Source of the DNA: a virus
Lineage: Duplodnaviria; Heunggongvirae; Uroviricota; Caudoviricetes
Strand: one strand, 5' to 3'
Virus record (IMG/VR): IMGVR_UViG_3300037882_002350
Coordinates: 18,999 to 82,998 of that record
DNA: 64,000 bases
A program made the position numbers and the translations under genes. Shown here in pieces: positions 14,078 to 54,705 of the stretch; positions within the stretch are counted from its first letter, which is position 1; every line of letters begins with the position of its first letter. The notes beneath the pieces were generated by a model. The model saw only the letters and a list, made by a program, of their open reading frames with translations. It was not told where the DNA came from and did not search any database.

Positions 14078-16234
14078 TTAGAATTCTCTAAGTACAGCTC
14101 TTACCTTGATATTATCTGCAAGGGAAGTAGGAGTTACTCTTACATAGGTATTTTCGTTACTACGATCTATATTATTGTATGTAGTCCACGCGCCGCCATT
14201 ATTTATGGATTTTTCCCAAGTCCATGCTTTTGTAACTGAATCATCAGAGCCTAGTGAGGCTCCTGTTTCTGCGTTGAATAACTCAATTTGTAATCTAGGT
14301 ACTGTTGAACCGTAAGCAACCGCGTGACGGAAACCAAATCGTTTGTTAACTAAATCAGTACCAATATTCGAAGAACCCTGCCAATAGTCTGACATATTAC
14401 TGTCTTCATACATTACGGCAACATTTAAAATTCTTGCTGGAACTAGGTGGTCTGCCATCCTAAACTCAAAACTAAATTGTATATGGGAAGCGCCTGCAAC
14501 TCCGGAAATGTCTCCAGAATTATCAATTGTCTGCCACGTACCCGAGTTATCAGAAATACCGGTTGTTCTGTATTTAATTTTGTGAGCTTCAGGTCTTACA
14601 CCAAAGTTCTTTCCTGTATCAAGACCTATAACCATATCTTCACTGGTGAATGCGGCGAGATATTGTTTGGCATTTGGAGTTGCTATACGTGGAGTGACGA
14701 TACGAGAATTTGTTGTACCTACCCACTCCCAATCACACCCGAGAGGTATAGCATAGATATGATTTAAAGCCGCCGTAGTACCTATTCTAACAGCATATAA
14801 CATACCATCTTCAATCCAGCTCGAAAACGGAGAAGCTAATTGCGAAGGTACAGGAGTAATACCGCTATCTGCTATGCCTTGGTCAACCTGTTTATGATCT
14901 ACGAATAAAACACGATCCATCTGTCCGCCGTCTGTTCTATATTGTGTTAGATAGGAACGAGCTCCTGCAACACCTGAAGACATTACAAGAAACTTATCTA
15001 TAAACCCACTGTATTCAATTGAGTTCATAACACCCGTTGCAGCGAATGTATTTATGCCACCAGGAGGAACTTCAGTCATATTATCTATTAACCAACCGGT
15101 TTCAGAAGCAACTATACTATCTACAGCTTTTGTTCTATATATTCTTGTTGCTGTAGTTAAGTATATACAATCGCTACCAGAGCCCGGCCCATGAGAGGTA
15201 TTAGCAATACGACCATTATTATTTTGAGAAGGAGCACCTACAAGAACACCACCACCACCAGTTTTAAATAGGAAAGCATTAGTGGCAGCTCCAGCTGTCA
15301 AAGTAAGATCTGCATAAACGTTGAATTTAAATAATACAGGGTTTGCAAGAGTATCTAACAACCAAAATATTCTGTTTGTTTGTGATGTTTTCTCTTGGAA
15401 TCCGCCTCCAAATGAGACAAGAGCAGTACCTGTTGCTGCATCTTTTAAGAAGTAGCAAGCACGGATACGATCTACAGTTGTCGCAGCAGGAACTGCGCCA
15501 CCAGCAGGTGCGAATAATTCTTTTTTTAAACCTTTAACAACGTATAGACCACCATTAGATGTAGTTACACTCGTACAAATAATATAAGCACGAAGATCTT
15601 CAATAACGTAAGGCGTTCCAGCAGCTATCGATCCTGCAGAAGTAGTTAGTGTTATACCTGTATCAGAGCCTACAGCTGAGATTTCATACCATTGTGTAAT
15701 CAGAGATGGGTCTGTAGAACCAAATCCAATACGATTACCAACGCAGGCTTTGTTAGCAGAAAATGTAGTTGATGTGCCGGTTACTGCTGTACCAGAAACA
15801 GCTACAGTTCCGTTAGTAATTTTTTCATATGACATACGAAGACTACGAATAGTCTTAGCTTCTAATGTACCTGGAAACGTAACAGTAATAAATCCGTCAT
15901 AAGTTAGTGTTCCAGTTATACGATCATAGCGATACATACCTAAACGACGAGTCGTTGCAGCTGTAGCGTTATCGGCTACAAATATCCAATCGGTTCTATC
16001 TGTCTCTGTCTCTGACCATCTCATAGCCCAAGGAAATGCAAAAGGAATAGCTACAGAAGCCTCCATAGGACGAGCTACAGAAACTGGTAGTGGTCCAACG
16101 AAGTTGTCATCTACTCCAGCACCTGTTTTCTGAGTCATAAGATAGCCAATACCTAAGGCGTCTTGATTATACGTACTAACACCTAGTTTGTATGATGGTA
16201 ATGAACCAAATTTTAAGATAGCTGAACGCTTCAT
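14078..16234 (-). CDS. large tail / baseplate or receptor-binding structural protein
   Basis: 718-aa Gly/Thr/Ser-rich beta protein within the tail-fibre gene block. Confidence 0.4.
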   Translation of the reverse strand: MKRSAILKFGSLPSYKLGVSTYNQDALGIGYLMTQKTGAGVDDNFVGPLPVSVARPMEASVAIPFAFPWAMRWSETETDRTDWIFVADNATAATTRRLGMYRYDRITGTLTYDGFITVTFPGTLEAKTIRSLRMSYEKITNGTVAVSGTAVTGTSTTFSANKACVGNRIGFGSTDPSLITQWYEISAVGSDTGITLTTSAGSIAAGTPYVIEDLRAYIICTSVTTSNGGLYVVKGLKKELFAPAGGAVPAATTVDRIRACYFLKDAATGTALVSFGGGFQEKTSQTNRIFWLLDTLANPVLFKFNVYADLTLTAGAATNAFLFKTGGGGVLVGAPSQNNNGRIANTSHGPGSGSDCIYLTTATRIYRTKAVDSIVASETGWLIDNMTEVPPGGINTFAATGVMNSIEYSGFIDKFLVMSSGVAGARSYLTQYRTDGGQMDRVLFVDHKQVDQGIADSGITPVPSQLASPFSSWIEDGMLYAVRIGTTAALNHIYAIPLGCDWEWVGTTNSRIVTPRIATPNAKQYLAAFTSEDMVIGLDTGKNFGVRPEAHKIKYRTTGISDNSGTWQTIDNSGDISGVAGASHIQFSFEFRMADHLVPARILNVAVMYEDSNMSDYWQGSSNIGTDLVNKRFGFRHAVAYGSTVPRLQIELFNAETGASLGSDDSVTKAWTWEKSINNGGAWTTYNNIDRSNENTYVRVTPTSLADNIKVRAVLREF

Positions 16235-18719: not shown

Positions 18720-19009
18720 GTAATCACCATTCTTATAGGGATAATTTTAAGAGTATCACGATTGTCCCATATTCTCAATTTAAAATTAAATTCACCTGCC
18801 GTTGTGGGTATTCCTGTAACTGTAAGTCCGGAAACTGACATACCTGTCGGTAGGGCACCTTCAAAAATGTCGACGGTGTAGGGCGCCTGAGCTCCGGTTG
18901 GAACAAGCGTTACAGTTGCGGTCGAGTTGGAGGGATAGGACGGATTTTGAGTTATACTGACTTGGAAAAGTCTAGCTCGTTTTCGTCGCAAAAGAAAGTT
19001 TCGTCTCAT
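18716..19009 (-). CDS. hypothetical structural protein (first gene of late leftward operon)
   Basis: 97-aa ORF. Its start codon lies 8 nt downstream of a TTGACA-N17-TATACT promoter, so the message is near-leaderless. Confidence 0.3.
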   Translation of the reverse strand: MRRNFLLRRKRARLFQVSITQNPSYPSNSTATVTLVPTGAQAPYTVDIFEGALPTGMSVSGLTVTGIPTTAGEFNFKLRIWDNRDTLKIIPIRMVIT

Positions 19010-23600: not shown

Positions 23601-25262
23601 ATGACTGTTAAGTTACAACCGGAAACTATAGCTTACTTCAAAGCTGCTGGCGTTTTTCGTGCTAAGACAGATGAAAAGGCACGGGAAAAATTTGATGAAA
23701 GTGTAGAAGATTTTGACGGTGAAGACGATTGCGAAACAAAAGACGCGCTTTTTACCGCGCTTATTGCTTGGCGCGATGAAACAAAGCTTGTAAAATTGCA
23801 AGCTGATGCTGCACGAGAACGCAAGCGGCAACAAAAAGCGGAAGCGGACGCCGCAAAGCCACTAACGGCTTCAATTGATAGCGTTGCAGATGTTATCAAG
23901 AAAATGCCGCACGGTCGATATGTTTTGACCGTGGCGCAAAATAACACGGATATCGACCCTGATATGTTTGCAGCGTTGCAACATTATTGTGTTGAAATGG
24001 ACGCAACTTTATTAATTGCCCGAACGACCTATAACAAGGGCGGGTTCAGGCAACCGGACGTAAATGACACAGAAGGGGAGAAGGGCGCTATTTTTTATGA
24101 TGATGCGGTGCAACCCTATCTTGTTTCCGGTCATATTGATTTAGGCGGCAAATTTCATTTTATCGCAGACGCTAACGTCATTGTAACAACAAAATGGCCG
24201 ACTAGCGGATTTGACGGCATTGCACCCGCTGGCGTGGGAGTTATAATTCCAGCCAGCAAAATTGAATTGCGCGTTAGCGCGGCGCTAAAAAATGCCCCTA
24301 ACAAAGTAATTGCCGCTACTGGTGCAATTACAAAGCGAAACTACATTATGCGCAAAGCGGGGGCGCAAGCCGCCTTTGCGCACTCAATCGGCGCTATTTT
24401 TGTAGATACGAAAAAAGGCACAATCCGCCATCTTGAACAGATGGAAGGGACAAAGGGCTTTTATGACATGGACCGCTTTTTTTCACCCTATGGGGTTAAG
24501 GATGCGTTAGGGCATGTTGCGGCGTTGCAATTTGGCGATATTCACGCTGAAAAGATGGAGCGTAAAAACATGAAAGCGGCGCTTGCTCTTATAGAGCAGT
24601 TGCAACCGGCTAACGTGATTTTGCATGATCTGCTAGATTTTTCATCCCGTAATCATCACAATATAAAAGATCCGACTTTCATTCATGCGCAAATGGTCGC
24701 AGGAAATACCGTCAAAGGCGACTTGCAAAAAATGGCCGCTATTGTAGATGAATTTCTTGCAACTGGCGTTAACTTGCATGTTATTGAAAGCAATCACGAC
24801 CTTGCGATTAATACTTGGTTGAAAAATGCCGATTTTAAAAATGATCCCGTAAATGCTGTTGTGTATCTTGATTGCATGTTAGCACTTTACAAGCATCAAG
24901 AAAAAGGGGGCAAGGATTACTTTAATATGCTATCCTTTGCTTATTCCAATATCGGGGGTGGTCGTTTTGCAGAAAGCATCGACTTTCACGAAACGGACGA
25001 AACGCTAACTATAGCCGGTGTGGAAATGGGCAATCATGGGCATAATGGGGTTAATGGCGCAAGGGGCAACCCTAAAGGATTTGCCGCATTAGGTGTAAAA
25101 ATGAACACCGGACATACGCATAGCCCTAGCATATATGGCCCTTGCTATACAGCCGGTGTTACCGCTTCCCTAGATATGGATTACAACAAGGGCGCATCGT
25201 CGTGGGCGATTGCCCACCTTGTCACCTATGACAACGGACAGCGACAAATTTTATTCGCTTGA
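23601..25262 (+). CDS. A1-like calcineurin-type metallophosphoesterase (Mre11/SbcD-like nuclease fold)
   Basis: 553 aa with phosphoesterase motifs in order: GDIH, LHDLLD, ESNHD, GNHGH, GHTH. Its size and context are close to T5 pre-early protein A1 (about 556 aa). The T5 A1 sequence itself was not compared. Confidence 0.55.
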   Translation: MTVKLQPETIAYFKAAGVFRAKTDEKAREKFDESVEDFDGEDDCETKDALFTALIAWRDETKLVKLQADAARERKRQQKAEADAAKPLTASIDSVADVIKKMPHGRYVLTVAQNNTDIDPDMFAALQHYCVEMDATLLIARTTYNKGGFRQPDVNDTEGEKGAIFYDDAVQPYLVSGHIDLGGKFHFIADANVIVTTKWPTSGFDGIAPAGVGVIIPASKIELRVSAALKNAPNKVIAATGAITKRNYIMRKAGAQAAFAHSIGAIFVDTKKGTIRHLEQMEGTKGFYDMDRFFSPYGVKDALGHVAALQFGDIHAEKMERKNMKAALALIEQLQPANVILHDLLDFSSRNHHNIKDPTFIHAQMVAGNTVKGDLQKMAAIVDEFLATGVNLHVIESNHDLAINTWLKNADFKNDPVNAVVYLDCMLALYKHQEKGGKDYFNMLSFAYSNIGGGRFAESIDFHETDETLTIAGVEMGNHGHNGVNGARGNPKGFAALGVKMNTGHTHSPSIYGPCYTAGVTASLDMDYNKGASSWAIAHLVTYDNGQRQILFA

Positions 25263-25916: not shown

Positions 25917-26326
25917 GGCCGGACCAACAAGCGGGGCGGCGCTTTCAATCCGCCCATATAAACGCGACGACGTTTTGAAACCTTTCGTTCCCAAGTGAAA
26001 CCGTTGGACAGGTTAGGAATATAACGGATAGTAGCAACGGCCAATTTCCTAATGAGCCGTAAGGGCAAAAGAGCAAAAGGGGCAAATTGCCCCTTTTGCT
26101 AATACTGCATAATGATATGTTATAACATAACATCAAGATTCCAGCCAAAACTTATCCACAATTAAAATGGTTAAAAGGCTTGACAAGCCCGAAAAATGTT
26201 GTTATGTTCATACCAAGGATGGCGCCGAAAATTTTGTGTCGCCAACACGCAATAAAATTACGTGCGATTTTACTTGACAATACAAATGGATTAAGGCATA
26301 ACGAGATTAACGAAAGGGCGTAGAAG

Positions 26327-26587
26327 ATGACTACCATAATTACAGAAATTAAGATTCCCTGTCGATGGGCTAAACCCCATCCAACTGGCACAAGTGTTTC
26401 TGACAGGGATGCTGTAGCCGTTTTTTCATTAGGGGTTGGCCCTTGCGGCAAAGAAGTTAATAAGCTAGATATGGTTTACGACAATCCTGCTTATTTCGCT
26501 GTTGTGCAATATTGTGACGGGGAAGCAAAAACTTTTGTTTACCCTTATCACACAATAACAGGCAGAATTAAAATAACTGAAAAATAG
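26327..26587 (+). CDS. hypothetical protein
   Basis: 86-aa ORF preceded by a GGCGCCGAAAATTTT motif and a TTGACA box. Confidence 0.3.
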   Translation: MTTIITEIKIPCRWAKPHPTGTSVSDRDAVAVFSLGVGPCGKEVNKLDMVYDNPAYFAVVQYCDGEAKTFVYPYHTITGRIKITEK

Positions 26588-26813
26588 TTCTTGACAGTGC
26601 AATCAAAACGCGCTATAAGAGAGAAACGAGGCAAGGAAGTAACCAACCCTTGTGCAAGCGTTTAGCCATTGCCCTGACCTTATTCCGTGTGGTAGCGGAG
26701 AGGACACCTATTGGGGATTGACGCTAAAGGGCGTGGCAGAAAAGCTACTCAAAATCTACCGCTAGTGGTATAAATTCTAGCTAAGCGGGGAATAATGGCC
26801 ATTATTCCCCGTC
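26587..26813 (+). ncRNA. short promoter-to-hairpin transcription unit A (sRNA or micropeptide transcript)
   Basis: TTGACAG-N16-TATAAGAG promoter at 26591-26623, followed by about 190 nt without an ORF of 30 aa or more. It ends in the perfect hairpin GCGGGGAATAATGG/CCATTATTCCCCG. Confidence 0.3.
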
Positions 26814-27225: not shown

Positions 27226-27604
27226 CATTAAAAGCAATATGAAGTAATTCTTGGCCCTAGCGGACAATATTCTAGACGTTCACGCTAGGACAGATAGGCG
27301 AAGGTGACAACAAGCAAGGCAATAGTAGAACGCTATAAGGTCAATCTGCTCGTTTTTGAGTTAGCTTGCACTGAATGAGGCTAAACCGAATTGACACGGG
27401 CCTCTTAACCGGAAATAAACCCGCCTTGTGCGGGTTTATTTTTGCGCTTTTTTCACTTGACAAGATCCAATTCCGCCACTATAATAAAAGTAGCGACCAA
27501 AATTGGCGCCGAAAATTTGCAGATACCCCACCCATTATAATTACGTATAGCTATAAGTCTAGTTACTGTCAAGCGAAAAAATTTCACATTTTGCGATTAT
27601 TTTT

Positions 27605-27925
27605 ATTGACAGGACGGTCAAAACGCGATATAAGAGATTATCAAGACGAGATAAGCCTTAAGCAAGTGGAGGCGTCTTGGGTGGGTAGTCCGGCCCTAGA
27701 TACCGTGATAGCGTGCCAATACGGGGTTAATAAATTGGTGTGACACTTCCTGTCACTAAGGTGGAGCGTAGGCTATTTCGGCCTGTCGATAATACCAAAC
27801 GAAACCGGAACCTATTCCGCTTGACAGTAAATAGGCGTTATCACATAACGTAAAAGAGGCTCGCTTGGCTTCGCGTGAAAAAGAAAAGCCGTTGCGGAGT
27901 CATGACCGTAACGGCTTTTTGATTT
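27605..27925 (+). ncRNA. short promoter-to-terminator transcription unit B
   Basis: TTGACAG-N17-TATAAGAG, then the conserved leader ATTATCAAGA, then about 280 nt with no long ORF. The only candidate is a 21-codon GTG frame behind a GGAGG. It ends in terminator GCCGTTGCGG...CCGTAACGGC-TTTTTGATTTTTT. Confidence 0.35.
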
Positions 27926-27939
27926 TTTCTGAAAATAAG

Positions 27940-28170
27940 TCTTGACAGAACAGTCAAAGCGCGCTATAAGAGATTATCAAGAGGGTGGAAACCTAGATAT
28001 AGGACAATAAAGCTCTCTTGACTCATTGATATGGTTCGCTACCGGACATTGAGGGTGGTTCCGTGTGTTGCCATAAGCTGACGGACGTTGGGGCTTGTTC
28101 CCGTAGCGACAAAAACGCAACAAGCTAGAGCCGCAGGGTGCGCGATTGCCCTGCGGCTTGAATTTTATTT
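27940..28170 (+). ncRNA. short promoter-to-terminator transcription unit C
   Basis: TTGACAG-N17-TATAAGAG plus ATTATCAAGAG leader. About 180 nt. Terminator GCCGCAGGG-tgcgcgatt-GCCCTGCGGC-TTGAATTTTATTT. Confidence 0.35.
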
Positions 28171-28416: not shown

Positions 28417-29665
28417 TCACCATATACGCATGATATGTTATAACATATCATGCCGCTTCGCGGCAAGTGGAACAAAACAGGAACAACCCCCTAGCGCCGA
28501 CGCGAGTAGTACGTCAACAACTATTTTACGCATACGTGCGCCGGCCGCCCAGTGCGAAATCTAGTACTATTTTTACGTGTGGCCACAACTTACCTCAAAT
28601 ATACAACTTAAACAGCCCCTCCCCACCCTGGTATACTAGCAGAGCTTGAAGCATCAGTCAAGTGCTAAATTGAGCGTCTCCGCGCACGTGTTGTTGCAAG
28701 CTCATACCAGTAGGCCTTCAATGAGCCCTGTTTTGGACATATTCCGACTTATTTGTAGTTTAACGAAGCTTGGGCAAGTTTTTTCACCGAAGGTGAATTT
28801 ATTTGCCCCAACTTTGAGTTAAAGCGACTTATTTTCATTTCCCGACTCGTTTTGGTCGTTGAGAGTTGGTATTCTGGAACATTCTGCGCCCGACAGCGAA
28901 AAATTCGGGCCGGCGAAAAAAATTTGCTGCGGACCTGCAGCAAGCTGTAGCAGGACTCACGCTTCGCGTGAAAAAGGCTTCAATCTAGTACAATATCAAC
29001 ACTAGATATATTCGTAAGGCAATAAAATACCCCCACTAGTACTAGACCAATGGAGGTTTAAACGAGCTAGAGTGGACTAGGGAGGGAGGCGGCCTGGGCG
29101 CTGGAATCCTCTTATAAGTCCACATAAATCAAAACAAACCCATCCACAGCCCCATTAGTATCCCAGTAGTAGCAACGTAACAAATAATCAAGTCGAAAAT
29201 GGTGTTTTTCAAAACACGGAGTTGTAGCCGACAGAAGCTATTATGACAGTAATAAATTTGTGGTGAAGTTGTTGGTAAAAGCGAGTTGTAGATAAGTAGT
29301 TAGTAAGTGTACGCGAAGCGTACTACGTTTGCGATAAGTTAGATAGAAGTAGATATAAGTTAATAGATATCTCACTTCACAGGGAACATTCTCTCTTGGC
29401 TACGCGGAGCTACGCCAGAGAATATTCCATGAGTGATATCTATTTTTAGTAATATAAAGAATTTGTGTATCAATCCATCATATAATATATGTTATAACAC
29501 ACTTTTTCCACAAATGCAAGAACTTTTTTGGAGGGGGTACGGTAGAAACGGAGTGAAATACCCAAGTCTTTATTTAAGGCCCCTTGCGAAAATCCTTGAC
29601 AAAGATGGTCTTTTTCTCTATACTGCTACTTAACACACTAATGTGTCAGTATTCAAGCAACGAAG

Positions 29666-34840: not shown

Positions 34841-35269
34841 ATGTCACCTGAGCTTGTATTATTAATGCTAATTTTTCTAGTTATGCTAATAACCAGCTTT
34901 TTAGTTATACCTATTGAAAAGTATTCCCATTTCTTTGACAGAATTACTAGAGGTAAGCTGCGTAAAGATCATGAAACACTAAAAATGGCTATTGACCACT
35001 TAAAGAACTATCCAGAAGAATGGTCTATTAGCAGAACTTCAGTAAATTTTCCTAAAGAAGGCTTAAAACGAATTGTTTTCAATTTAGATAGAAGTACTGG
35101 ATGGGAGTATAATATGCCAGCTTTTGGTAACTTCAGGCCTCTAAACGGCCACTTTGAAGCATGTTTAGAAGAGATTATTAAGAAAGAATGTTCTATTCAA
35201 GAACGAGAAGCCCTTTTTAGAGCATTCCACCCAGAATTAAACAACCTGTTACTTACTAAAAGGGCTTAA
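34841..35269 (+). CDS. membrane-anchored hypothetical protein
   Basis: 142 aa with an N-terminal TM helix. Confidence 0.3.
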   Translation: MSPELVLLMLIFLVMLITSFLVIPIEKYSHFFDRITRGKLRKDHETLKMAIDHLKNYPEEWSISRTSVNFPKEGLKRIVFNLDRSTGWEYNMPAFGNFRPLNGHFEACLEEIIKKECSIQEREALFRAFHPELNNLLLTKRA

Positions 35270-35270
35270 G

Positions 35271-35864
35271 ATGATCGAATTTGGTGTCCTACTTATACTT
35301 GTTGTGGCTGGTATTATGAGCTACCTAGATTTATCTTCTCGTACTTACCAGCTTGCAATAGATCCCCAGAGCTTTCCCCCACCTCACAAACCTGCCGTTG
35401 AATTGATTTTAGAATTACTACGTGTAGAGCCACAAAATTGGAAAAATACAACACAGTATGTTATACATGATGGTTTAAATATAAAAGTATTTAAAGAAAC
35501 TAATTCTTATTCAGCTGAAATAACTATATTTATAGATAACGTAGAGTTAGTAGATATTACAGTAAGTGAACAAAATAGCTTAGGTAAAGCTATTAGAAAG
35601 TTTGAAATAGATAAGAAACAGACTCATAATGAAGAACTCACTAAAAAACTCGCGAAACAAATTCTCGAACGAGAACAAAGCATTTTGGCTCAATCTGAAT
35701 TGGGAGGAAGCAGAGAAGCAAAATCTTCTGCCGTGGCAAGTACCACCCTTAAACTCACAGACGAAACCGGAAACGAGATTATTACAGATTTGTCACTCCA
35801 TTCTCTCTTGAAGAAGGAACAGTCATATGACTATTTACAATACAGTAAAAAAAGAAATTATTAA
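35271..35864 (+). CDS. membrane-anchored hypothetical protein
   Basis: 197 aa with an N-terminal TM helix. Confidence 0.3.
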   Translation: MIEFGVLLILVVAGIMSYLDLSSRTYQLAIDPQSFPPPHKPAVELILELLRVEPQNWKNTTQYVIHDGLNIKVFKETNSYSAEITIFIDNVELVDITVSEQNSLGKAIRKFEIDKKQTHNEELTKKLAKQILEREQSILAQSELGGSREAKSSAVASTTLKLTDETGNEIITDLSLHSLLKKEQSYDYLQYSKKRNY

Positions 35865-36057
35865 ATATAAGGCCGCAGTAGTTAGTAGCTACTGTGAGCA
35901 ATATGACTGCAGCGATAGATGGAGAAGTATAGATAGCTATGTATACTATTGCGTAGTTATGATTTTGCTTATTTTAGTAACTGCGGTTCTAGTTTAAAAA
36001 TAAATCTTGACTTTTAAGCTTAAAAAGCGTATTTTCTTAAAAGATAAGGAAATAACG

Positions 36058-36327
36058 ATGAATGACGAATTAAGAAATAAATTTGTTAAAATCTTTCAAC
36101 AAGTAGACGGAGGCTCGTCTACACATATGGAAGCTATGATTGATGATGCTATTGAGAACGGTATCATCACTAGAAACGATTTTGATGATAACGAATTAGA
36201 AGTTTGTGGTATTTTCGATAATGACTGGTTCACATGTCTAGGCTGTGACTGGATTTTACCTATCGAAGACCAAGATGAACGCGGTGAATGGCACTGCAAA
36301 CAATGTATGGATGAAGAATATGGATAA
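36058..36327 (+). CDS. Cys-rich hypothetical protein
   Basis: RBS aaggaaataacgATG. C-terminal CLGCDW...CKQC pattern. Confidence 0.35.
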   Translation: MNDELRNKFVKIFQQVDGGSSTHMEAMIDDAIENGIITRNDFDDNELEVCGIFDNDWFTCLGCDWILPIEDQDERGEWHCKQCMDEEYG

Positions 36328-36393
36328 TCAAGGAACCTTTTGGTTTGGATTTGTAACTCTAGCGGCGGTATTTTTATATGCACTGGTGTCAGC

Positions 36394-36822
36394 ATGATTT
36401 TAAAAATGTATGCTATTTTTGCGCGAGAAACTCTTAAACAAATGCAGTTTGAGGGTAAGCTTGCTGCGCAAGCGGGTCACGCCTTTCTACATGCTTGGTG
36501 GGATGCAGAAAACCGTCTTGAAATAAACGGACACCATTATTCTGATTATTATAGGGACGTAATGCTTCCTTATAAAAACGGAAATGATGCCCGTAAAATC
36601 ACCTTAGTTGTAGATACTGTCGACGAGCTAGAGGAACTGTACTATAAATTCCGTCCCCATATGGGAGCAACTCTTGTAGAAGACTGTGGTTATACGGTTT
36701 TTGATGAACCAACAATAACAGCTGTTGGACTCGGTCCAATTCCTAGTGACTGGACTATAGGTACGTCTTTATCTGACTTACCTACACTACAAAATGAAAT
36801 TCATGGAGAAAAATATGTTTAA
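36394..36822 (+). CDS. PTH2-family peptidyl-tRNA hydrolase-like protein
   Basis: KLAAQAGHAFLHAW matches the PTH2 catalytic motif (KIAAQCSHA...). TLVVDT..EL and TLVEDCGYTVF..PTITAVGLGP correspond to conserved PTH2 strands. Confidence 0.45.
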   Translation: MILKMYAIFARETLKQMQFEGKLAAQAGHAFLHAWWDAENRLEINGHHYSDYYRDVMLPYKNGNDARKITLVVDTVDELEELYYKFRPHMGATLVEDCGYTVFDEPTITAVGLGPIPSDWTIGTSLSDLPTLQNEIHGEKYV

Positions 36823-37144
36823 GAAAATTGTTTCAGTTTTAGCTTTGGGACTCTCACTATCTGCTTGTGGTCAATTAAATAAAGAAACTCACACATTTAC
36901 AGTAGACTCTAAGGAACGTAAATGTGATAGCGCGGGTGAAACTACAGATTGCTATTACGTAGTTTACGGCACAGGTGGTGAGGTTTTTGAAAACCGTGAC
37001 GACCTGTTGAACGCTAAATTTAATAGTGGTACTTTACAAGCTAAATTTAAAGTTGGAAGCACTTACACAGTTAGAACTACTGGCTGGCGTAACGAGTTTC
37101 TCTCTATGCAACCCAATATTATTGAGGTAAAATTTGTTAAGTAA
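36794..37144 (+). CDS. lipoprotein
   Basis: Signal peptide with lipobox LSLSAC. 116 aa. The true start may be the ATG at 36815. Confidence 0.4.
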   Translation: MKFMEKNMFKKIVSVLALGLSLSACGQLNKETHTFTVDSKERKCDSAGETTDCYYVVYGTGGEVFENRDDLLNAKFNSGTLQAKFKVGSTYTVRTTGWRNEFLSMQPNIIEVKFVK

Positions 37145-37288
37145 TATCCTATCTCTGCTTATATTTAGAGCAAAGATGCTTTTGACAACCAACCCGTTTG
37201 CCCCAATTGCGTTCGTTCATCGAACAAGAGAGGGGCACGTCTGGCAAATTGTAGTTAGCAGAGTTCCCGAACTGGAGAAACAAGTAGC

Positions 37289-37585
37289 ATGAAAATAAGT
37301 AAAGAAGCTAGGCAGTATGCTTGGTATTATAATGATTTTCATTGTGTGCCGGATAGAGAAATGCGTGAAGGCTGGTTTTCGGGAAAATACGATAATCATC
37401 CACAAGGTGGAGCAATACGTTTATTTGCAAAATTTGAAACAAAAATACGAGAAGACGAACGCATAGCGGCAGAACAACGCGGCATGGAACGGGCTGCGGT
37501 GATTGCGGAGGGTCTTTCATCGCCTGAACAGTATCACGACATCGCCGCTGCAATACGCAACGCAAAGGAGGCGAATGATGGATAA
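37289..37585 (+). CDS. hypothetical protein (GC-rich island)
   Basis: 98-aa ORF. Local GC is about 55%, against about 38% in the flanks. Confidence 0.35.
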   Translation: MKISKEARQYAWYYNDFHCVPDREMREGWFSGKYDNHPQGGAIRLFAKFETKIREDERIAAEQRGMERAAVIAEGLSSPEQYHDIAAAIRNAKEANDG

Positions 37586-37853
37586 GGAAAAAGTTGCTCG
37601 TGATATTGTCGCCAAACACTATCCCGAAATGAAGCCGTCATACAAAGGACGTAGACTGACAATAGCGCAGGAAGCGTATGCATCCGGACAGAAAACCGCC
37701 TACGCGCCCGACCGGATAACGCCGGAAGTGGTGGAGGCTGCGGCTAGGGCGATAAGCCTGAATACAACGATGACAGAGGATAATTGGCCGAACTTTGTAG
37801 GGGCCGCCAAAGCCGCGCTCCTTGCAGCGTTTGCGACGTTGGGAGGTGTGTGA
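37578..37853 (+). CDS. hypothetical protein (GC-rich island)
   Basis: RBS aaggaggcgaATG. 91 aa. Confidence 0.35.
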   Translation: MDKEKVARDIVAKHYPEMKPSYKGRRLTIAQEAYASGQKTAYAPDRITPEVVEAAARAISLNTTMTEDNWPNFVGAAKAALLAAFATLGGV

Positions 37854-37974
37854 TGGAATACATAATATACGTAATAATTGCCGGAGCGTGCTGCACCTGT
37901 TTTGCTCTTGGCGTGTTTTGTGAACGCGGGAAACCGAGCCGTCACTTTTGCATCCGTTGCCAGAGTAAATTGCC

Positions 37975-38340
37975 ATGACAACACTATCAACCCGCCTAGC
38001 AGCGGCAACGCAACTAACGCCCGAACTCCGCGAAGAAATGGCGCGGCTTTGCGGGTGGTCGTGGGAAAAAGCAATTCCAGTAGGACAAGGAAGCTGCGCT
38101 AGTGGGTGGGTACGCGACAAAGATGTGCAGTGGACATTGCCCAAGCTCGACCTCACCGAGATAGTGGCAGAGAACGACCGGCGCGGGTGGGATAGCAGCC
38201 ATGATACGGCATTCGGCCAATGTCAATTTAGAGTGGCAACCGGCTGCAAACTACATCGCGCCAGCCGCCCCGACCGCAACATCCAGCTATGCGCTATGAC
38301 TGCGCTGGCGATGGCTTTGGAGAACACGAATGCAGAATGA
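37975..38340 (+). CDS. hypothetical protein (GC-rich island)
   Basis: 121-aa ORF. The ORFs in the island overlap start to stop. Confidence 0.35.
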   Translation: MTTLSTRLAAATQLTPELREEMARLCGWSWEKAIPVGQGSCASGWVRDKDVQWTLPKLDLTEIVAENDRRGWDSSHDTAFGQCQFRVATGCKLHRASRPDRNIQLCAMTALAMALENTNAE

Positions 38341-38659
38341 CCTTACACAAGCTGAATTGAGTAAGCCGGACGTTGCACAAGCGGATTGCGCCTCAACCTT
38401 CGCCCATATCCGTGAACAGGCTGGCGAAGAAAGCACATGGGATGGGTTGCCGCGCCAGATAATGATGTGGCTGGACATGGAACCAAAGACGCCTGATACA
38501 CTATTCAAACACCTAGAACGCAGCGGCTATGAAATTCCGCAATGGTTGCTTGATGAACCTGAAATGCGTCAACGCGACCATGTGCCAAGTAAAGGGACGC
38601 GATGCGTTATCCTGTTTCGCGCCATGCTCGACCAGATCGAAAGGACAACCAATGACTGA
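38330..38659 (+). CDS. hypothetical protein (GC-rich island)
   Basis: 109-aa ORF. Confidence 0.35.
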   Translation: MQNDLTQAELSKPDVAQADCASTFAHIREQAGEESTWDGLPRQIMMWLDMEPKTPDTLFKHLERSGYEIPQWLLDEPEMRQRDHVPSKGTRCVILFRAMLDQIERTTND

Positions 38660-39014
38660 CCGCCAACTATCACAAAACGCCGTTATTGCGGCTATCTCGG
38701 TTGTTGGGTGCCAGAGGTTGGAAAACCTCGGCATCCGCGAAGATGACGCGGCCTACAATCAGGCGCTCGAACACGCCATAGCAGCCGTTAAAGCACTGCC
38801 GGAGGTGTCTTTTCGCCCGACAGTGGAGAACTATCTGAAAAAGCGAGTCGCGGAATTAGAGGCTGAATTGTTGTCCCGCAACTTTGCGTTTGATATACTT
38901 ATGCAACAGTCTGACGAATTCGCTAGAACGATGAACCAAAAGACAGACCGGATTTTAGCTCTAGTGAAAAATCACTTTCCAGACAGCCCACCGGAGGCGA
39001 ATGATGGACAGTGA
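38652..39014 (+). CDS. hypothetical protein (GC-rich island)
   Basis: RBS aaaggacaaccaATG. 120 aa. The longer listed ORF 38529..39014 is an upstream in-frame extension. Confidence 0.35.
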   Translation: MTDRQLSQNAVIAAISVVGCQRLENLGIREDDAAYNQALEHAIAAVKALPEVSFRPTVENYLKKRVAELEAELLSRNFAFDILMQQSDEFARTMNQKTDRILALVKNHFPDSPPEANDGQ

Positions 39015-39764
39015 AGACCGCTGCGAAATAGCCCGTATGGTCGCAGAGTGGAGAGCGTTCAAACGCGCTTTCTGGCTTGGTTTTACTGGCAAGAGATTGG
39101 AAGATTATGATGGACAATAAGGAACTGATAGCGCAACTTGCCGCTTACTCGGATGACGGCACTTTCCGCACCCGCCTGCTAAAGAAAGCCGCCCAAGCCC
39201 TTGCCGCACAGGATGCGCGTATTGTTGAACTGTAAGCAGAGATTGAACAAGCTAAAACTTCTGCCAAAACAGACCAGCAATTCTATAGTGCGCTTAGTGA
39301 CGTTTTGATTGCGCATATTGCTAAACTGGAGAATAATAATGCAGATAATTAACTTGGACGGTTTACAAAATTTACGTTTTGCTCTTGATGACGTAATAGG
39401 TTATTTAACAGATAATAGTTGCAGCGACCCTGACTGCTGTGGTGGACCTTTCTACGAACTAGAAGAGTACGAATCAGGCTTAAAAATACTTCAACATTAT
39501 GGATTAAAATATGAAATCTGAATTTAAAATGTCAAAAATTGATATTCAAATAGCTATAGTTGAATACTTTGAAAAACGAGGTATTACAATTGAGCCTAAG
39601 CAAGTTAATCTAAAAGGGTCTCCTCAATATGACTTTAGGGGTGAGCCTGTGCTAAGCACTTATGACATATCTGCAACAGTTGAAGTTAGTCACACTTTTT
39701 TTCAAAGATATTAAAATTGCTTCTTGACTATCTTGGTTATCTACATTATAATTATGGAAATTAA

Positions 39765-40154
39765 ATGAGAATTATCGGACCTAAAAAACTAACCAAACGT
39801 GCTGAATTTGTAGCAAATTTACTAGACATAAAACCAGCAATAACTCTTTCTTGGGCTAAAGAAGAAGGTGACTTTTCATATTGTATAGAGAACGATGATG
39901 CTTCTTTTAATATGGAAATTCAAAAGTGGTTAAAGGGCGAAGATTTAATTAAAACTATCGGACATGAAATGGTCCACGTTTGGCAACACAAACGAGGAGA
40001 CCTTGTCTCCTTTCATAACGAATTTCGTTGGTTTTGGAAAGGTCAGATGTACGTAGGTACTGAAAATAATATGGAAGAATACTTTCTCAGGCCTTGGGAA
40101 TTAGAAGCTAGAGCCTTAGAGGATTGGATAGCGTGGCGGTGGAGAAATAGATGA
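39765..40154 (+). CDS. SprT-like HExxH zinc-metallopeptidase domain protein
   Basis: HEMVHVWQH motif. Paralogue of 21496..21894. Confidence 0.4.
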   Translation: MRIIGPKKLTKRAEFVANLLDIKPAITLSWAKEEGDFSYCIENDDASFNMEIQKWLKGEDLIKTIGHEMVHVWQHKRGDLVSFHNEFRWFWKGQMYVGTENNMEEYFLRPWELEARALEDWIAWRWRNR

Positions 40155-40867
40155 GCTATAGTGAAGAATTAACTCAAGAAATTATAGAAGAATATAAGGC
40201 TAATCCTTGTCGAAAAACTGTAGACCAAATTTCAGAAAGAATAGACAAGTCTGTTCGTTCAGTTATAGCTAAACTATCAAGTGCTGGAGTTTATCAAACA
40301 CCGCAACGCACAACTAAAACTGGTGATGCCATCGTGAAGAAGGAAGAACTGGTTAGAGACATTTGCACATGGTTAGGTGTTGAAGCCCCTACACTTGCAA
40401 AAACAGGTAAGTTAGACTTACAAAAAATACATAAAGCAATGCATGACTTACTGTCAGAGATTGATTGATGCGTAAGCCTTCAATGAAACAAGCTGAATGG
40501 ATTGCAAACCAAATGGATGATGCAAATGCTGATGACGTATTTGACGTCCTTTTAGGTACTATAACAGAGCCTAGCTATTTCGTAAAAGAAGTGGAAGAAT
40601 GGGCAAAAGAATATGAATTAGATTTTAGGAGACATAATGTCGGATAAGTTAAATTGGATGAAAGAACAACTAGAAGAAGACGGTTGGGGCGAGTTAAATA
40701 TTGAAGATATTAAAGCAATTTTAGATGGTGCTGTGGAAGATTTCGAAGATACTCTAGTTGACTGTGTTTTGGAGTTAGAGTCCGAATGGGCTACAGACGG
40801 GAACATTTAATATAGTTCTTGACTTCTTTGGTCTTCTTAGGTACAATGAGTCATCAAAGGAGACAAT

Positions 40868-41248
40868 ATGGAAAACGAAATTTTAGCATTTTTAAACAGA
40901 CGTGAAAATCTGCGAGCTGATTTAGTCCTTTGTTTGACAGACACCTCCATCCCACTAGATACCCGATGGAGTGCTTTTTTATCTTCTGAAGATATTTTGC
41001 CTATATGGCCTTGGATAGATAGACCTATGGATATTTATTCCGATTGCCTTTATGACGATTTTTGTATCGAAAGGCATCAAACCGCAACTTATGCTGAAAT
41101 AGACGAACAAGTTTGTCAAAATTCAACTACGGAAGGTGAGGAGCCAGGATATCAGGCTGAATTTTGGGATGCTTGCTATGCTAAGCGTGACCTATGGCGA
41201 GAGGCAGTTCTGGCAAGTGGTTATAGTGGTTTTGTTTACGATTGGTAA
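40868..41248 (+). CDS. hypothetical early protein
   Basis: 126-aa ORF with RBS aaaggagacaatATG downstream of a consensus early promoter. Confidence 0.35.
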   Translation: MENEILAFLNRRENLRADLVLCLTDTSIPLDTRWSAFLSSEDILPIWPWIDRPMDIYSDCLYDDFCIERHQTATYAEIDEQVCQNSTTEGEEPGYQAEFWDACYAKRDLWREAVLASGYSGFVYDW

Positions 41249-41453
41249 ACTTAATTATTGACTTTGACGCTCAATGTGTCTATATTGAGAAAATGGAAAG
41301 CGCGAAGAACTATCGAGATGGCGCTTTAACGGGCAATTCATTGAGTTGTCGCAGTTGGTAGGCAGTTCTAGGATATTGGAGGGCGGCTAGGCTTGGCAGT
41401 CGTTAAATGAAAGGTGTAACTGGCTTTCACCCTACCATATCTTAAAAAAGTTC

Positions 41454-41482
41454 TTGACTTTCAAGGCTTTTAATAGTATAAT
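41454..41482 (+). promoter_or_regulatory. consensus early sigma70-type promoter
   Basis: AGTTCTTGACTT (TTGACT 41454-59), 17 nt spacer, TATAAT (41477-82), then GAG. Confidence 0.55.
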
Positions 41483-42183
41483 GAGTTTTCAAGATATGGG
41501 AAGGGCTGCAATCCTTCTTATTAGTTATGAAGCATCAATGGTCGATGTACCCCTCTTAAAGGGTGTGTTCTCTGCGGAGAATGTGGTTCGATTCCACCTT
41601 AACGAACTAAGCTGTGCCGAGCGGGCATTCCTCGAAAGAGAGAATACGGGTTGGATTCCCTAGGCTTAGAAGTCTGAAATGCACAGCGGGCTTTGAACCC
41701 GAAAGACAGAGATTGGTAGCCTCTGACGCATAGCGTAGGTGTAAACATACTACCCAATTTGACTAGTGCAACGAACTTTAAGGCACGATAAATATGGAGA
41801 AGTTATAAAAAGTATGACGCTAGAAGCGCGTATAAAAACAGTTGTTGACTGGCCATACTATACTTGAGGTTCAATGCGATGGCGTCGGTTGAATAATAGC
41901 TACCCCATTATTAGTAATGAAAATAACTAGCTTTCCTCTTGCAAATAGAAAGACGTTTCTATTGGAGCATAAAGGGTTGTGGCATCGCACAACATTCTTC
42001 CTAGCGGATGGTAGGGGCTAGGGAGCCGGATTTTATTGAGGTTAAAACCTCTACGAAACGGGCCTGTGAGTGTAATGATACCGGTCGCCAGACCAACCCG
42101 TGTATGTCGGGAGTCCTAAGTCTCACAGATAGGGATAACACATGCACTTAAGGCGGCGAGGTGAGAATCTTGCCGCCTTTTTA
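41483..42183 (+). ncRNA. about 700-nt promoter-to-terminator structured non-coding RNA candidate
   Basis: No ORF with RBS between promoter 41454 and terminator GGCGGC...GCCGCC-TTTTT (42150-42183). It contains tRNA T-arm-like hairpins (GTGGTTCGATTCCAC; GGGTTGGATTCCC; CGGGCTTTGAACCCG) and many short helices. Confidence 0.4.
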
Positions 42184-49756: not shown

Positions 49757-50776
49757 ATGAAATACGATTTATTAGTTTACATAGGGCGCTTTCAGCCACT
49801 TCATCGGGGACACCAAGAAGTGATTGAACGTGCCCTTTTGCTTTCCAAAAAGGTGCTTGTTCTAGTTGGTTCAGCAAACCAAGCGCGTACGACGCGCAAC
49901 CCATTCACTTATGATGAACGTGCAACTCTAATTAATGAGCTATACCCAAGTGTAGTCACTAAGCCTCTACAAGACCATACCTACAACGATACGGCGTGGA
50001 TTGCGGAAGTACAAAAACAAGTTAAAGAAACTTTGCTAGGAACTGGTTGGACTCCTGATGGTCTTTCTGATTACAAAGTTGGCCTCATAGGTTGCAACAA
50101 AGATGCAACATCTTACTACCTTAAGATGTTCCCAAATTGGGCTAACGAAAGTATAGAGCATTTTGATGAAATTGACGCAACTCCTATTCGCAATCGCTTT
50201 CTAGCCAATAAAATGAATGAAGCTTTTATGGAGCAGGTTGTTATAAGTCAAAATGTATACGAGTTTATGCAAGACTTTATGATTACAGATAGCTATACAG
50301 CCTTAAATGAGGAATATAAGTATCTTGTTAAATATAAAGAAAACTACGGGCACGGTCCTTTCCTCACAGCTGATGCACTTATCCAGGTTGGTGGGAAAAT
50401 CCTACTTATCCGTCGCGGAAAAGAATATGGACATGGTCTGTTGGCGCTTCCCGGTGGATTTGTTAATCTGGGAGAGACCTTTATCAACGCTTTCCTTCGG
50501 GAACTGCGAGAGGAAACAAATCTTAGAGTCCCTGTGCCAGTCTTAAAAGGCTCAATTAAGAATACTTTTATGGCTGATGAACCTAATCGTTCGGCACGAG
50601 CACGGCTAGTGTCACAAGTATTCCACGTTAAACTGGAAAACGATGTGAAATTGCCCGAAGTACGTGGCGGCGACGATGCTGATGAAGCGTTGTGGGTTGA
50701 TATTGCGGACTTGCGTCGTGAGGACTTCTTTGAAGACCATTATCATATTATTAAGCTTATGTTGGGGTTAAACTAA
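49757..50776 (+). CDS. nadM: bifunctional NMN adenylyltransferase / Nudix hydrolase (NadM-like)
   Basis: N-terminal GRFQPLHRGH (HxGH nucleotidyltransferase motif). C-terminal Nudix box LPGGFVNLGETFINAFLRELREETNL. Confidence 0.7.
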   Translation: MKYDLLVYIGRFQPLHRGHQEVIERALLLSKKVLVLVGSANQARTTRNPFTYDERATLINELYPSVVTKPLQDHTYNDTAWIAEVQKQVKETLLGTGWTPDGLSDYKVGLIGCNKDATSYYLKMFPNWANESIEHFDEIDATPIRNRFLANKMNEAFMEQVVISQNVYEFMQDFMITDSYTALNEEYKYLVKYKENYGHGPFLTADALIQVGGKILLIRRGKEYGHGLLALPGGFVNLGETFINAFLRELREETNLRVPVPVLKGSIKNTFMADEPNRSARARLVSQVFHVKLENDVKLPEVRGGDDADEALWVDIADLRREDFFEDHYHIIKLMLGLN

Positions 50777-53322: not shown

Positions 53323-54705
53323 ATGACCAAGTTTAATTTCATCCAAGACACTGATAGTTACAAATTTTCCCATTACCAATATTACGTTCCTGGAGCGGAA
53401 CACATTTATAGCTACGCGGAGAGTCGTGGTGGTGTATATCCTGCAAGCGTATTCTTTGGATTACAAAAATATATTAAAGAATTAGCTGATGTTCGTGTAA
53501 CCCTTGACGACTTAGTAGAGGCTTCAGAGTTCGCAGAAGCACACGGTGTACCTTTCAACTATACTGGCTGGAAGAGCATCGTTGTAGACCACAATGGAAA
53601 AATTCCAGTACGTATCAAAGCGGTTGCGGAAGGCACTCTCGTGCCAACCAGCAATGTTCTCGTAACGGTTGAGAATACTGACCCTTCGATGCCTTGGCTA
53701 ACCAGCTATATCGAAACTGCACTTCTGAGAGCGGTTTGGTATCCTACGACTGTAGCTACTCGTATTCACTACATGAAAGAAAGGATTAAGCCATTCTTCG
53801 ATGAAACCAGCGATACTGGCGACATGGGTTTTGCTATTCTTGACTTCTCGGCTCGTGGCGTTTCCAGCCGTGAAACTGCCGAAGTTGGTGGTCTTGGTCA
53901 TTTGGTTCACTTTATCGGTTCGGACAACATTCCAGCTGTTCTAGCTGCTCGTAAATTCTATGATGAGCCAATGGCCGCTTTCAGCGTTGCTGCAACAGAA
54001 CATAGTGTCATGACTAGTTGGGGTGATGAAAATCGTGAGAGCGAAGCAATAAAATATATGATCGATACGATGCCAGAAAACGGTATTCTATCAGTTGTTG
54101 GTGATACTTATAATATCTACAATTTTATTGATAAAGTAGCTCGTCTAGAGGATAAGATTGCGGCTAAGAATGGTACCTTTGTAATCCGCCCAGATTCTGG
54201 CGATATGAATGTTGTGTTACCTAAAGTTTTTGAAAAGGTTCGTAATCTTTTTCAAGGCGAATTTAACAACAAAGGCTATTTCGTGCCTAAGTATGTTAAA
54301 GTTCTGCAAGGCGACGGTATTGATGAGGTTAGTGTTTCTACCCCCTTTAAATTGGCAATGGAAGAAGGGCTTAGTGCAGATTGTATTATGACGGGCTCTG
54401 GTGGTGGACTTATGCAATCGCATATTGATCGTGACACACTAAAATTTGCCTTTAAAGCATCCAGCGTCACTATTAATGGTGTTGATGTTCCGATCGCTAA
54501 GGAACCATTCACTGATCCGGGAAAACGGAGCAAAAAGGGTAAACTAAAGTTAATTACCAATGAAAATAAATATATGACTGTTTCATCTGAAAATGAAAAG
54601 TTTTATCATATAATGTGTGACGAATTAAAACTTGTATATGAGAACGGCGAGGTTTTCAATAACCAAACACTAGCACAAATTCGGGAACGTGCTGCAAAAA
54701 ACTAA
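53323..54705 (+). CDS. nadV: nicotinamide phosphoribosyltransferase (Nampt/NadV)
   Basis: 460 aa. The N-terminus FNFIQDTDSYKFSHYQYY parallels the Nampt N-terminus (FNILLATDSYKVTHYKQY). Size and general similarity fit NadV. Confidence 0.65.
   Translation: MTKFNFIQDTDSYKFSHYQYYVPGAEHIYSYAESRGGVYPASVFFGLQKYIKELADVRVTLDDLVEASEFAEAHGVPFNYTGWKSIVVDHNGKIPVRIKAVAEGTLVPTSNVLVTVENTDPSMPWLTSYIETALLRAVWYPTTVATRIHYMKERIKPFFDETSDTGDMGFAILDFSARGVSSRETAEVGGLGHLVHFIGSDNIPAVLAARKFYDEPMAAFSVAATEHSVMTSWGDENRESEAIKYMIDTMPENGILSVVGDTYNIYNFIDKVARLEDKIAAKNGTFVIRPDSGDMNVVLPKVFEKVRNLFQGEFNNKGYFVPKYVKVLQGDGIDEVSVSTPFKLAMEEGLSADCIMTGSGGGLMQSHIDRDTLKFAFKASSVTINGVDVPIAKEPFTDPGKRSKKGKLKLITNENKYMTVSSENEKFYHIMCDELKLVYENGEVFNNQTLAQIRERAAKN

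Follow-up and report, generated by a model that had tools for sequence, protein, structure and literature searches.

The window analysed here is a stretch of 64,000 nucleotides (nt) from a tailed phage of the Caudoviricetes (record IMGVR_UViG_3300037882_002350, positions 18,999 to 82,998). The feature of interest is a block of eight small, closely packed open reading frames (ORFs), ORF1 to ORF8, which forms an island of high GC content in the AT-rich early region of this genome (Table 1). The block lies downstream of the gene for the A1 DNA-transfer protein and upstream of a tRNA cluster; on its left it follows a lipoprotein gene, and on its right AT-rich genes start again at 39339. It was probably acquired horizontally, as part of a mosaic module of small genes that belongs to the early regions of phages, and the recipient is a distant T5-like phage.

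In 300-bp windows, the GC content is 0.51-0.56 from about 37500 to 39000 and 0.28-0.39 on either side, and a two-boundary likelihood fit over 35500-41000 sets the edges of the island at 37449 and 39219 (53.4% GC between them, 36.5% beyond). No other segment of the 64 kb stands out as strongly in composition: the island lies 5.0 standard deviations above the mean of 1771-bp windows, and every other window of that size has at most 46.6% GC (the mean GC content is 39.0% for the whole window and 38.6% with the island excluded). The GC content at third codon positions (GC3) is 0.47-0.58 in the island ORFs and 0.19-0.32 in the neighbouring genes; thus, the difference in composition sits at synonymous positions. 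An earlier note on this DNA had described a GC jump between 37150 and 39300. The jump is real (z = 5.0), and a sliding-window and codon-position check shows that composition is not uniform, with sharp switches in both GC and GC3. As to its limits, the right-hand switch falls at about 39215-39235, whereas the left-hand one has to be moved to about 37440-37465, inside ORF1.

All the plus-strand ORFs proposed in that note exist where it had placed them, the third ending at 37978 because the figure of 37975 had left out the stop codon. Neighbouring ORFs are joined by ATGA-type or short start-stop overlaps, and most starts are preceded by AGGAGG, GGGAGG, GGAG or AGGA at a distance of 4-8 nt. The good ribosome-binding sites (RBSs) claimed for these genes are therefore present at most starts, but the signals are weaker before ORF1, ORF4 and ORF8. 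GC content at first codon positions is about 0.6 in the plus-strand ORFs and exceeds that at second positions, as is typical of coding sequence, whereas long minus-strand ORFs (e.g., 37638-38156, 172 amino acids (aa)) have a flat positional GC content (0.54/0.56/0.54). This identifies the plus strand as the coding strand, as had been supposed. The minus-strand ORFs were considered as genes and rejected, since in addition to their flat positional GC they overlap conserved plus-strand genes; they are high-GC artefacts.

That the block was acquired horizontally is borne out by a module shared with four metagenome contigs of 50-53% GC (L007, L008, L013 and L012) and by patches of 81-100% DNA identity to such contigs that are confined to the island. 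The order of the module in the GC-rich contigs is ORF1, ORF2, slot, ORF4, slot, ORF6, ORF8. Three of the carriers are short contigs from the Joint Genome Institute (JGI) metagenomes 3300020042 and 3300020044. In L007 (3300020042, 1935 bp, 53.5% GC), the 3' end of an ORF1-like gene is followed, in this order, by an ORF2-like gene, a 90-aa gene, an ORF4-like gene (52% identity), a 52-aa gene, and counterparts of ORF6 (36% identity over 124 aa) and ORF8 (54.5% identity over 44 aa, tblastn). Its 90-aa and 52-aa slot genes are unrelated to ORF3 and ORF5, and its ORF6-like gene runs directly into the ORF8-like gene (...CCACCGGAGGCGAATGATGGACAATAAGGAA...), with no ORF7 between them. L013 (3300020044, 2634 bp, 52.8% GC) has ORF1-like and ORF2-like genes, a 49-aa gene, an ORF4-like gene, a 60-aa gene and an ORF6-like gene. 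In L008 (53.1% GC), two tandem ORF1-family genes lie downstream of a Phage_P22_Y8K6-like gene; these paralogues (991-1525 of the contig) both have the AAEQRGMERAA motif and a ...NAKEA C-terminus, which suggests that the ORF1 family duplicates locally within the module. L012 is a podophage-like 25-kb contig of 49.8% GC in which an ORF2-like gene, a 59-aa gene and an ORF4-like gene are directly followed by genes for a primase-helicase and a DNA polymerase A. The closest relatives of this polymerase are roseophage enzymes, e.g., that of SIO1 (about 32% identity), and no integrase is present among the genes shown. L012 also encodes, at 93-2780 and 15695-15808, two amidoligase-type proteins (weak COOH-NH2_lig and Amidoligase_2 matches) and a holin of the gene transfer agent type. 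These genes hint at an alphaproteobacterial (Rhodobacterales-like) host for this carrier.

The positions of ORF3, ORF5 and ORF7 are occupied by unrelated genes, or by none, in L007, L013 and L012. For example, the slot of ORF3 is filled in these three contigs by genes of 90, 49 and 59 aa that are not related to it, two of which encode Cys-rich products. DNA similarity between the island and the contigs follows the same pattern: it is limited to short patches, many of them at gene junctions (37550-37593, 91%; 38265-38324, 98%; 38647-38702, 93%; 38984-39010, 100%; 39107-39138, 97%), and gene interiors are mostly diverged or unalignable. Identity in the patches at the ORF1/2, ORF4/5, ORF5/6, ORF6/7 and ORF7/8 junctions is 89-100%, and ORF5 is exactly the non-similar stretch between the 98% and 93% patches. 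Near-identical junctions, divergent interiors and swapped slots argue for repeated recombination at gene boundaries, and the repeated junction that combines RBS, stop and start codons (Table 1) is likely a recombination hot-spot between modules. Thus, the same module order in unrelated genomes, the patchwork identity and the unrelated genes in equivalent slots are all found here.

This relationship does not extend beyond the block. No similarity between the window and the module contigs was detected outside the island, and the island genes have no paralogues within the window. None of the 50,697 GenBank phage records, T5-like phages included, carries an island gene (tblastn, concatenated proteins), the same kind of search against plasmids found nothing related, and neither did blastn of the island against E. 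coli genomes. A search of IMG/VR for the exact DNA patterns of the junctions was likewise negative.

Table 1. Genes and sequence features at the GC-rich island (window coordinates).
Feature	Position	Strand	Description
Lipoprotein gene	36794-37144		Lipobox LSLSAC read in the sequence; PHROG 301 'secreted protein'
Inverted repeat, left arm	37151-37161	+	ATCTCTGCTTA; 11 nt, perfect; 7 nt past the lipoprotein stop codon
ORF0 candidate	37176-37292	+	38 aa from ATG 37176; ATGA overlap with ORF1; in a patch of about 49% GC
ORF1	37289-37585	+	98 aa; family motifs AAEQRGMERAA and AIRNAKEA
Junction (RBS, stop and start)	37558-37589	+	GGAGGCGAATGATGGA; repeated at 38984-39015; also in L007, L008 and L013 (90.9-100% identity)
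ORF2	37578-37853	+	91 aa; 92 aa from ATG 37575 (JGI call)
ORF3	37853-37978	+	41 aa; variable slot 1; one predicted membrane helix, then a Cys-rich tail; strong RBS GGGAGG
ORF4	37975-38340	+	121 aa; consensus MTTLSTRLAAAT...LDLTEIVAEIERRGW...RPDRNIQLCAMTALAMA
ORF5	38330-38659	+	109 aa; variable slot 2; domain W.GL.R.IMMWLDM...LF.HLER.G.EIPQWLRDEPEM..LDHVPSKGTR
ORF6	38652-39014	+	120 aa; N-terminus conserved; C-terminal half divergent, helical-looking
ORF7	39001-39120	+	39 aa; extra gene between ORF6 and ORF8
ORF8	39107/39110-39235	+	41-42 aa; homologue of a 58-aa L007 gene
Inverted repeat, right arm	39233-39243	-	TAAGCAGAGAT (as read on the plus strand); starts with the ORF8 stop codon
Open frame past ORF8	39236-39349	+	38 codons, AEIEQAKTSAKTDQQFYSALSDVLIAHIAKLENNNADN; GC3 0.2-0.4

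The individual genes differ in how widely they are conserved. ORF1 is homologous over its full length to P0152, a 91-aa protein of L008 (38% identity, E 2e-15). ORF2 is 100% identical to P0006, and its homologues occupy the matching module position in L007, L013 and L012, with a DNA identity of 70.9-89% over 37693-37857 (tblastn and blastn). The best domain match of ORF3 is weak (LITAF-like zinc ribbon, E 0.014). ORF4 belongs to a small conserved family in which six proteins were matched by HMMER and 31 alignment positions are invariant; the family alignment found no relatives in GTDB genomes, IMG/VR or JGI metagenome contigs. Its structure model is poor (predicted local distance difference test score 61). 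A Phage ABA-sandwich domain in ORF4 was considered and rejected, as there was no Pfam match at E<=1 and the model was too poor for a fold test. ORF6 is related to its L013 counterpart by 54% identity over the N-terminal 54 aa, and its DNA patches reach 95%, 87% and 100%. ORF7 is flanked on both sides by a repeated junction, ATGATGGACA (39001 and 39107).

ORF5 carries a widespread, all-helical domain of about 70 aa with a confidently predicted model. An exhaustive HMMER search with the concatenated island proteins found 206 representatives at E<=1e-10; this domain accounts for nearly all of the matches listed, which were the best 150. It should be noted that word-indexed protein searches with long concatenated queries, in which chance word matches prevailed and ORF5 gave the only hits, covered ORF2, ORF3, ORF6 and ORF7 suboptimally. 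The domain lies outside Pfam (none of 44 members has a credible match), and its predicted fold has no analogue among solved or predicted viral structures (PDB and BFVD). In temperate phages, ORF5-family genes are located amid small accessory genes beside those for ERF, SSB, a Phage_P22_Y8K6-like protein and an integrase. Family members also occur in Sphingobium genomes and in one alphaproteobacterial metagenome-assembled genome, and two fusions were seen, one with DUF551 and one with a sub-threshold Lar-like zinc ribbon.

The two edges of the island appear to record how it was joined to the resident genome. ORF1 is AT-rich up to about 37449 (GC3 0.21) and GC-rich in its C-terminal half (GC3 0.49); in 15-codon windows, its GC3 is 0.0-0.33 until about 37450 and at least 0.47 thereafter. 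The 89-92% DNA identity with L008 and L013 begins at 37464/37465. The N-terminal 36 residues alone nevertheless match P0152 (E 1e-6), the gene of which is GC-rich in both halves. In the simplest reading, ORF1 would be an in-frame hybrid of an AT-adapted resident N-terminus and an incoming GC-rich copy, with the left crossover near the conserved AAEQRGMERAA motif, at about 37450-37465. The left joint thus falls inside ORF1, and an insertion between the lipoprotein gene and 39340, as the earlier note had envisaged, does not describe it.

On the right-hand side, GC3 drops past about 39215-39230, and the TAA stop codon of ORF8 (39233-39235) is aligned to a GAA codon in the L007 homologue. The open frame that follows is in the frame of ORF8, ends 11 nt into the next native gene and contains the GGAG RBS of that gene. 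This frame is probably what is left of the 3' end of a native gene that was displaced, or of a hybrid ORF8; taken together, ORF8 and these 38 codons resemble a gene remnant or a hybrid gene interrupted by a nonsense codon. The right joint would accordingly lie at the end of ORF8 (39220-39243), leaving an in-frame TAA and the remnant with the RBS of the next gene. A separate idea, that the N-terminus of ORF1 and the frame at 39236-39349 are parts of one native gene split by the insertion, was rejected because the latter does not resemble the ORF1 family (hhalign probability 0.1) and the protein rebuilt from both parts aligns to P0152 over its N-terminal 36 residues only.

Taken together, these data suggest the following course of events. 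A phage lineage of about 50-53% GC would have carried a syntenic chain of small, translationally coupled genes, in which whole genes were swapped in the slots of ORF3, ORF5 and ORF7 and the junction sequences stayed near-identical between lineages. About 1.8 kb of this string, possibly 2.1 kb, would then have entered, by recombination, the early region of a T5-like phage with a GC content of about 39%. It can be argued that this event was recent because the boundaries are sharp and GC3 is unameliorated.

Such an exchange has to be weighed against other explanations. The earlier note spoke of a classic moron or a recently acquired cassette, and a moron is defined by a foreign GC content together with a promoter and a terminator of its own (review by Cumby, Davidson and Maxwell 2012, PMC3594210). 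The acquired cassette and the foreign composition stand, but the two signals do not: in a consensus scan, which is weak evidence, no promoter-like site was found in the interval from the lipoprotein gene to ORF1, and no terminator beyond ORF8 or bracketing the block. An autonomous unit placed between two native genes would agree with the GC content, which is sharply unlike the surroundings and one of the defining traits (PMC3594210), and with a few weak promoter-like matches inside the block (37839, 38871 and 39082, each 9/12). However, the eight genes form an overlap chain that runs on into the next native gene via the RBS-carrying remnant frame, the left junction is intragenic, and expression from a repressed prophage is inapplicable to a T5-like phage with no sign of lysogeny in the window. 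A classic moron is thus quite unlikely, and a block without its own promoter and terminator points instead to exchange of a mosaic module. Similarly little credit can be given to a mobile cassette (37151-39243) with terminal inverted repeats of 11-16 bp that is mobilised in trans between phage genomes, although the perfect 11-nt inverted repeat, one arm of which lies 7 nt past the stop codon of the lipoprotein gene and the other right at that of ORF8, invites such an explanation. The repeat extends to 16 nt with 2 mismatches, and no exact copy of its motif occurs in the window apart from these two arms. When the two 200-nt boundary windows were shuffled 2000 times, 12 of the shuffles also gave an 11-nt inverted repeat, in a test that was post hoc. 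Moreover, a separate patch at 37165-37285 is already GC-enriched (about 49%), and foreign DNA may begin near 37151. On the other hand, domain searches revealed no transposase or recombinase in any island ORF, a target-site duplication is absent (the flanks, TAATATCCT and TGAACAAGC, differ), and the repeat motif is missing from all 13 related loci. The right arm lies within sequence that aligns to the coding sequence of the L007 ORF8 homologue, and the relatives of the module are mosaic gene by gene rather than moving as a unit. Strongly disfavoured is the view that the genes are native, i.e., that an ancestral block owes its GC content to amino-acid or structural constraints. The N-terminus of ORF1, native-like in codon usage and a member of the same protein family, might indeed indicate that the family has been resident for some time; however, the difference in composition is synonymous and sharply bounded, patches of the DNA match contigs of island-like GC at up to 98-100% identity, and the GenBank phages, T5-like ones included, carry no island gene.

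Recent exchange of a mosaic module nonetheless has to face several points that weigh against it. The source is a single JGI/IMG metagenome contig (82,998 bp), and the island proteins are all singleton clusters at 90% identity, so the block could be an assembly chimera in which the assembler switched, at short shared sequences, from an AT-rich T5-like phage to a co-occurring phage of about 53% GC and back, and which would then exist in no real genome. The origin of the closest DNA relatives (L007, L008 and L013) in short metagenome contigs is consistent with this, as is the left junction within the family-conserved AAEQRGMERAA motif, where graph-based assemblers can switch genomes. Still, a chimera is unlikely: it needs two switches 1.8 kb apart, back into the same phage and with reading frames kept. 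The AT-rich phage would also have to possess a homologous module of its own that shares k-mers with the other phage at either end, and no sign of such a module was seen. In addition, the right junction has no recognisable shared sequence, and the island is merely 68-100% identical to the known GC-rich contigs, which rules out a simple paste-in. No close relatives of the phage were found with the island and its flanks in GenBank phages, IMG/VR or JGI metagenome contigs. Megablast and blastn of the island and of 35000-41500 returned no relatives from GenBank phages, the flanking genes for the lipoprotein and a PTH2-type peptidyl-tRNA hydrolase (PTH2) led to none in IMG/VR and JGI metagenome contigs, and nine concatenated flanking proteins (tblastn against GenBank phages) retrieved PTH2 homologues only, mostly from Caulobacter phages. 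Exact look-ups of ORF1, ORF4 and ORF5 in a contig index gave no entry. Neither the inverted repeat at 37151/39233 nor the patch at 37165-37285 fits a model of two crossovers with the left joint at 37450. The patch could hold a ninth small ORF (ORF0), with GC and GC3 of 0.4-0.53 in an open frame that spans 37134-37292; this candidate has no match in the fetched related loci. Furthermore, the AT-rich N-terminal half of ORF1 could have come with a mosaic donor rather than from the resident phage, homology beyond the ORF8 stop codon amounts to only four codons of a Glu-rich helix, and ORF3 and ORF7, for which no homologue was found, may not be genes. The functional part of the proposal is affected by the lack of matches for the island proteins: as the earlier note had anticipated, they have no recognisable function, all matches in Pfam, PHROGs, NCBIfam and PADLOC being at noise level, and neither PDB nor BFVD yielded a match, PDB being negative at the sequence level as well. 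A search of Rfam also found nothing.

If the block is an exchanged module, its expression would depend on the recipient. The absence of a promoter and a terminator of its own, together with the overlap chain, suggests that the island genes most likely owe their transcription to read-through from early promoters further upstream and their translation to coupling. As judged from the ORFs, their products would be seven small soluble proteins and one membrane peptide. An anti-defence or host-modulation cargo, which the earlier note had suggested, finds no support in homology to any defence or anti-defence family or to any solved structure. Going by position and context, the proteins are most likely dispensable, host-directed early accessory factors that might serve host takeover, anti-defence or exclusion. 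It is improbable that the block is a cassette marked by the inverted repeats and moving among T5-like siphophages, roseophage-like podophages and temperate phages, with ORF5 as a new counter-defence or takeover family.

The recipient itself is, on the evidence of its predicted proteins, a distant T5-like phage with a Demerecviridae-like backbone. The A1 DNA-transfer protein is encoded at 23601-25262 (PHROG 1745, E 6e-152; 40% identity to A1 of Klebsiella T5-like phages), and TerL is 45% identical to that of Vibrio T5-like phages. The minus strand from 2.9 to 18 kb carries genes for the terminase, the portal, a protease-capsid fusion and the tail tube, and nine tRNA genes are clustered at 59-63.6 kb. 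The fusion appears to be encoded by a single 661-aa ORF (7010-8995, minus strand), which matches profiles of the head maturation protease (residues 8-266) and the major head protein; in T5, protease and capsid are encoded by separate genes. Near the island, the PTH2 gene is located at 36394-36822 (Pfam E 6e-12), and among the GenBank phage matches listed its nearest relatives are in phiCbK-like Caulobacter phages (about 45% identity).

Other observations concern more distant parts of the window. A 65-nt element is present in three to four copies (26567-26631, 27582-27646, 27918-27982 and about 28214) and contains a near-consensus promoter, TTGACAG...N17...TATAAGAG. The copies lie downstream of A1, in a stretch where ORFs are scarce and GC is relatively high (27.4-29.2 kb), and may be strong early promoters for very small genes or for non-coding RNAs. 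This ORF-poor region also has two copies of a 22-nt near-palindrome, ATGATATGTTATAACATAACAT, at a distance of 2.3 kb (26112-26133 and 28430-28451), which might serve as a binding site or act like the injection-stop signal of T5. Finally, a cytidylyltransferase/Nudix fusion of the nicotinamide mononucleotide adenylyltransferase type (49757-50776) and a nicotinamide phosphoribosyltransferase (53323-54705) are encoded further downstream; together they form a phage-encoded pair for NAD+ salvage, and such pairs have been reported to counteract defence systems that deplete NAD.

The island resembles several known systems without being identical to any of them. Morons of the lambdoid phages HK97 and HK022, which were reportedly described by Juhala and colleagues in 2000, are likewise horizontally gained DNA of foreign composition that encodes accessory proteins beyond the core phage programme. 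However, they are intergenic, independent units expressed from the prophage, whereas the island lacks both signals, comprises eight coupled genes in a T5-like early operon and has an intragenic left joint. The early-left regions of lambdoid and P22-like phages contain small overlapping genes, including those for DUF551 proteins, between the recombination genes and int. Here the likeness extends to start-stop overlaps, unrelated genes in equivalent slots and joints at gene boundaries, and members of the ORF5 family are found exactly there, with ERF, SSB and integrase genes as neighbours. The difference lies in the genomes involved: the recipient is T5-like with about 39% GC, and the carrier L012 has a primase-helicase and polymerase A. 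T5-like phages are known as virulent, and the module, as far as its carriers can be classified from their genes, crosses lifestyle and family boundaries. The hyperplastic regions of T4-like phages, in which small early genes are said to be shuffled via conserved promoter/stem-loop junctions (Arbiol and colleagues, 2010), are also variable clusters exchanged through short conserved junction sequences. In the island, however, the junctions are RBS-stop-start overlaps rather than promoter stem-loops, and the exchange would have taken place between unrelated phage families of very different GC content. With the variable early ORFs of the Demerecviridae, the island shares small ORFs of no assigned function between the pre-early gene A1 and the tRNA cluster, but its proteins, and the flanking proteins except PTH2, have no homologue in GenBank T5-like phages.

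Within this context, the pattern fits classical phage mosaicism of the ordinary kind, seen in unusually clean detail, and the island leaves the current understanding of phage evolution unchanged. Nonetheless, it offers a well-resolved case of probable gene flow into a T5-like phage, in which RBS-stop-start junctions appear to act as recombination points, and it points to a pool of small early accessory genes common to phage families and lifestyles. ORF4 and especially the ORF5 domain, as conserved uncharacterised families, are candidates for functional screens against defence systems. Compared with the known systems, what is less usual is that a T5-like recipient is paired with donors whose GC content is much higher, and that the module is spread over podophage-like and temperate backgrounds.

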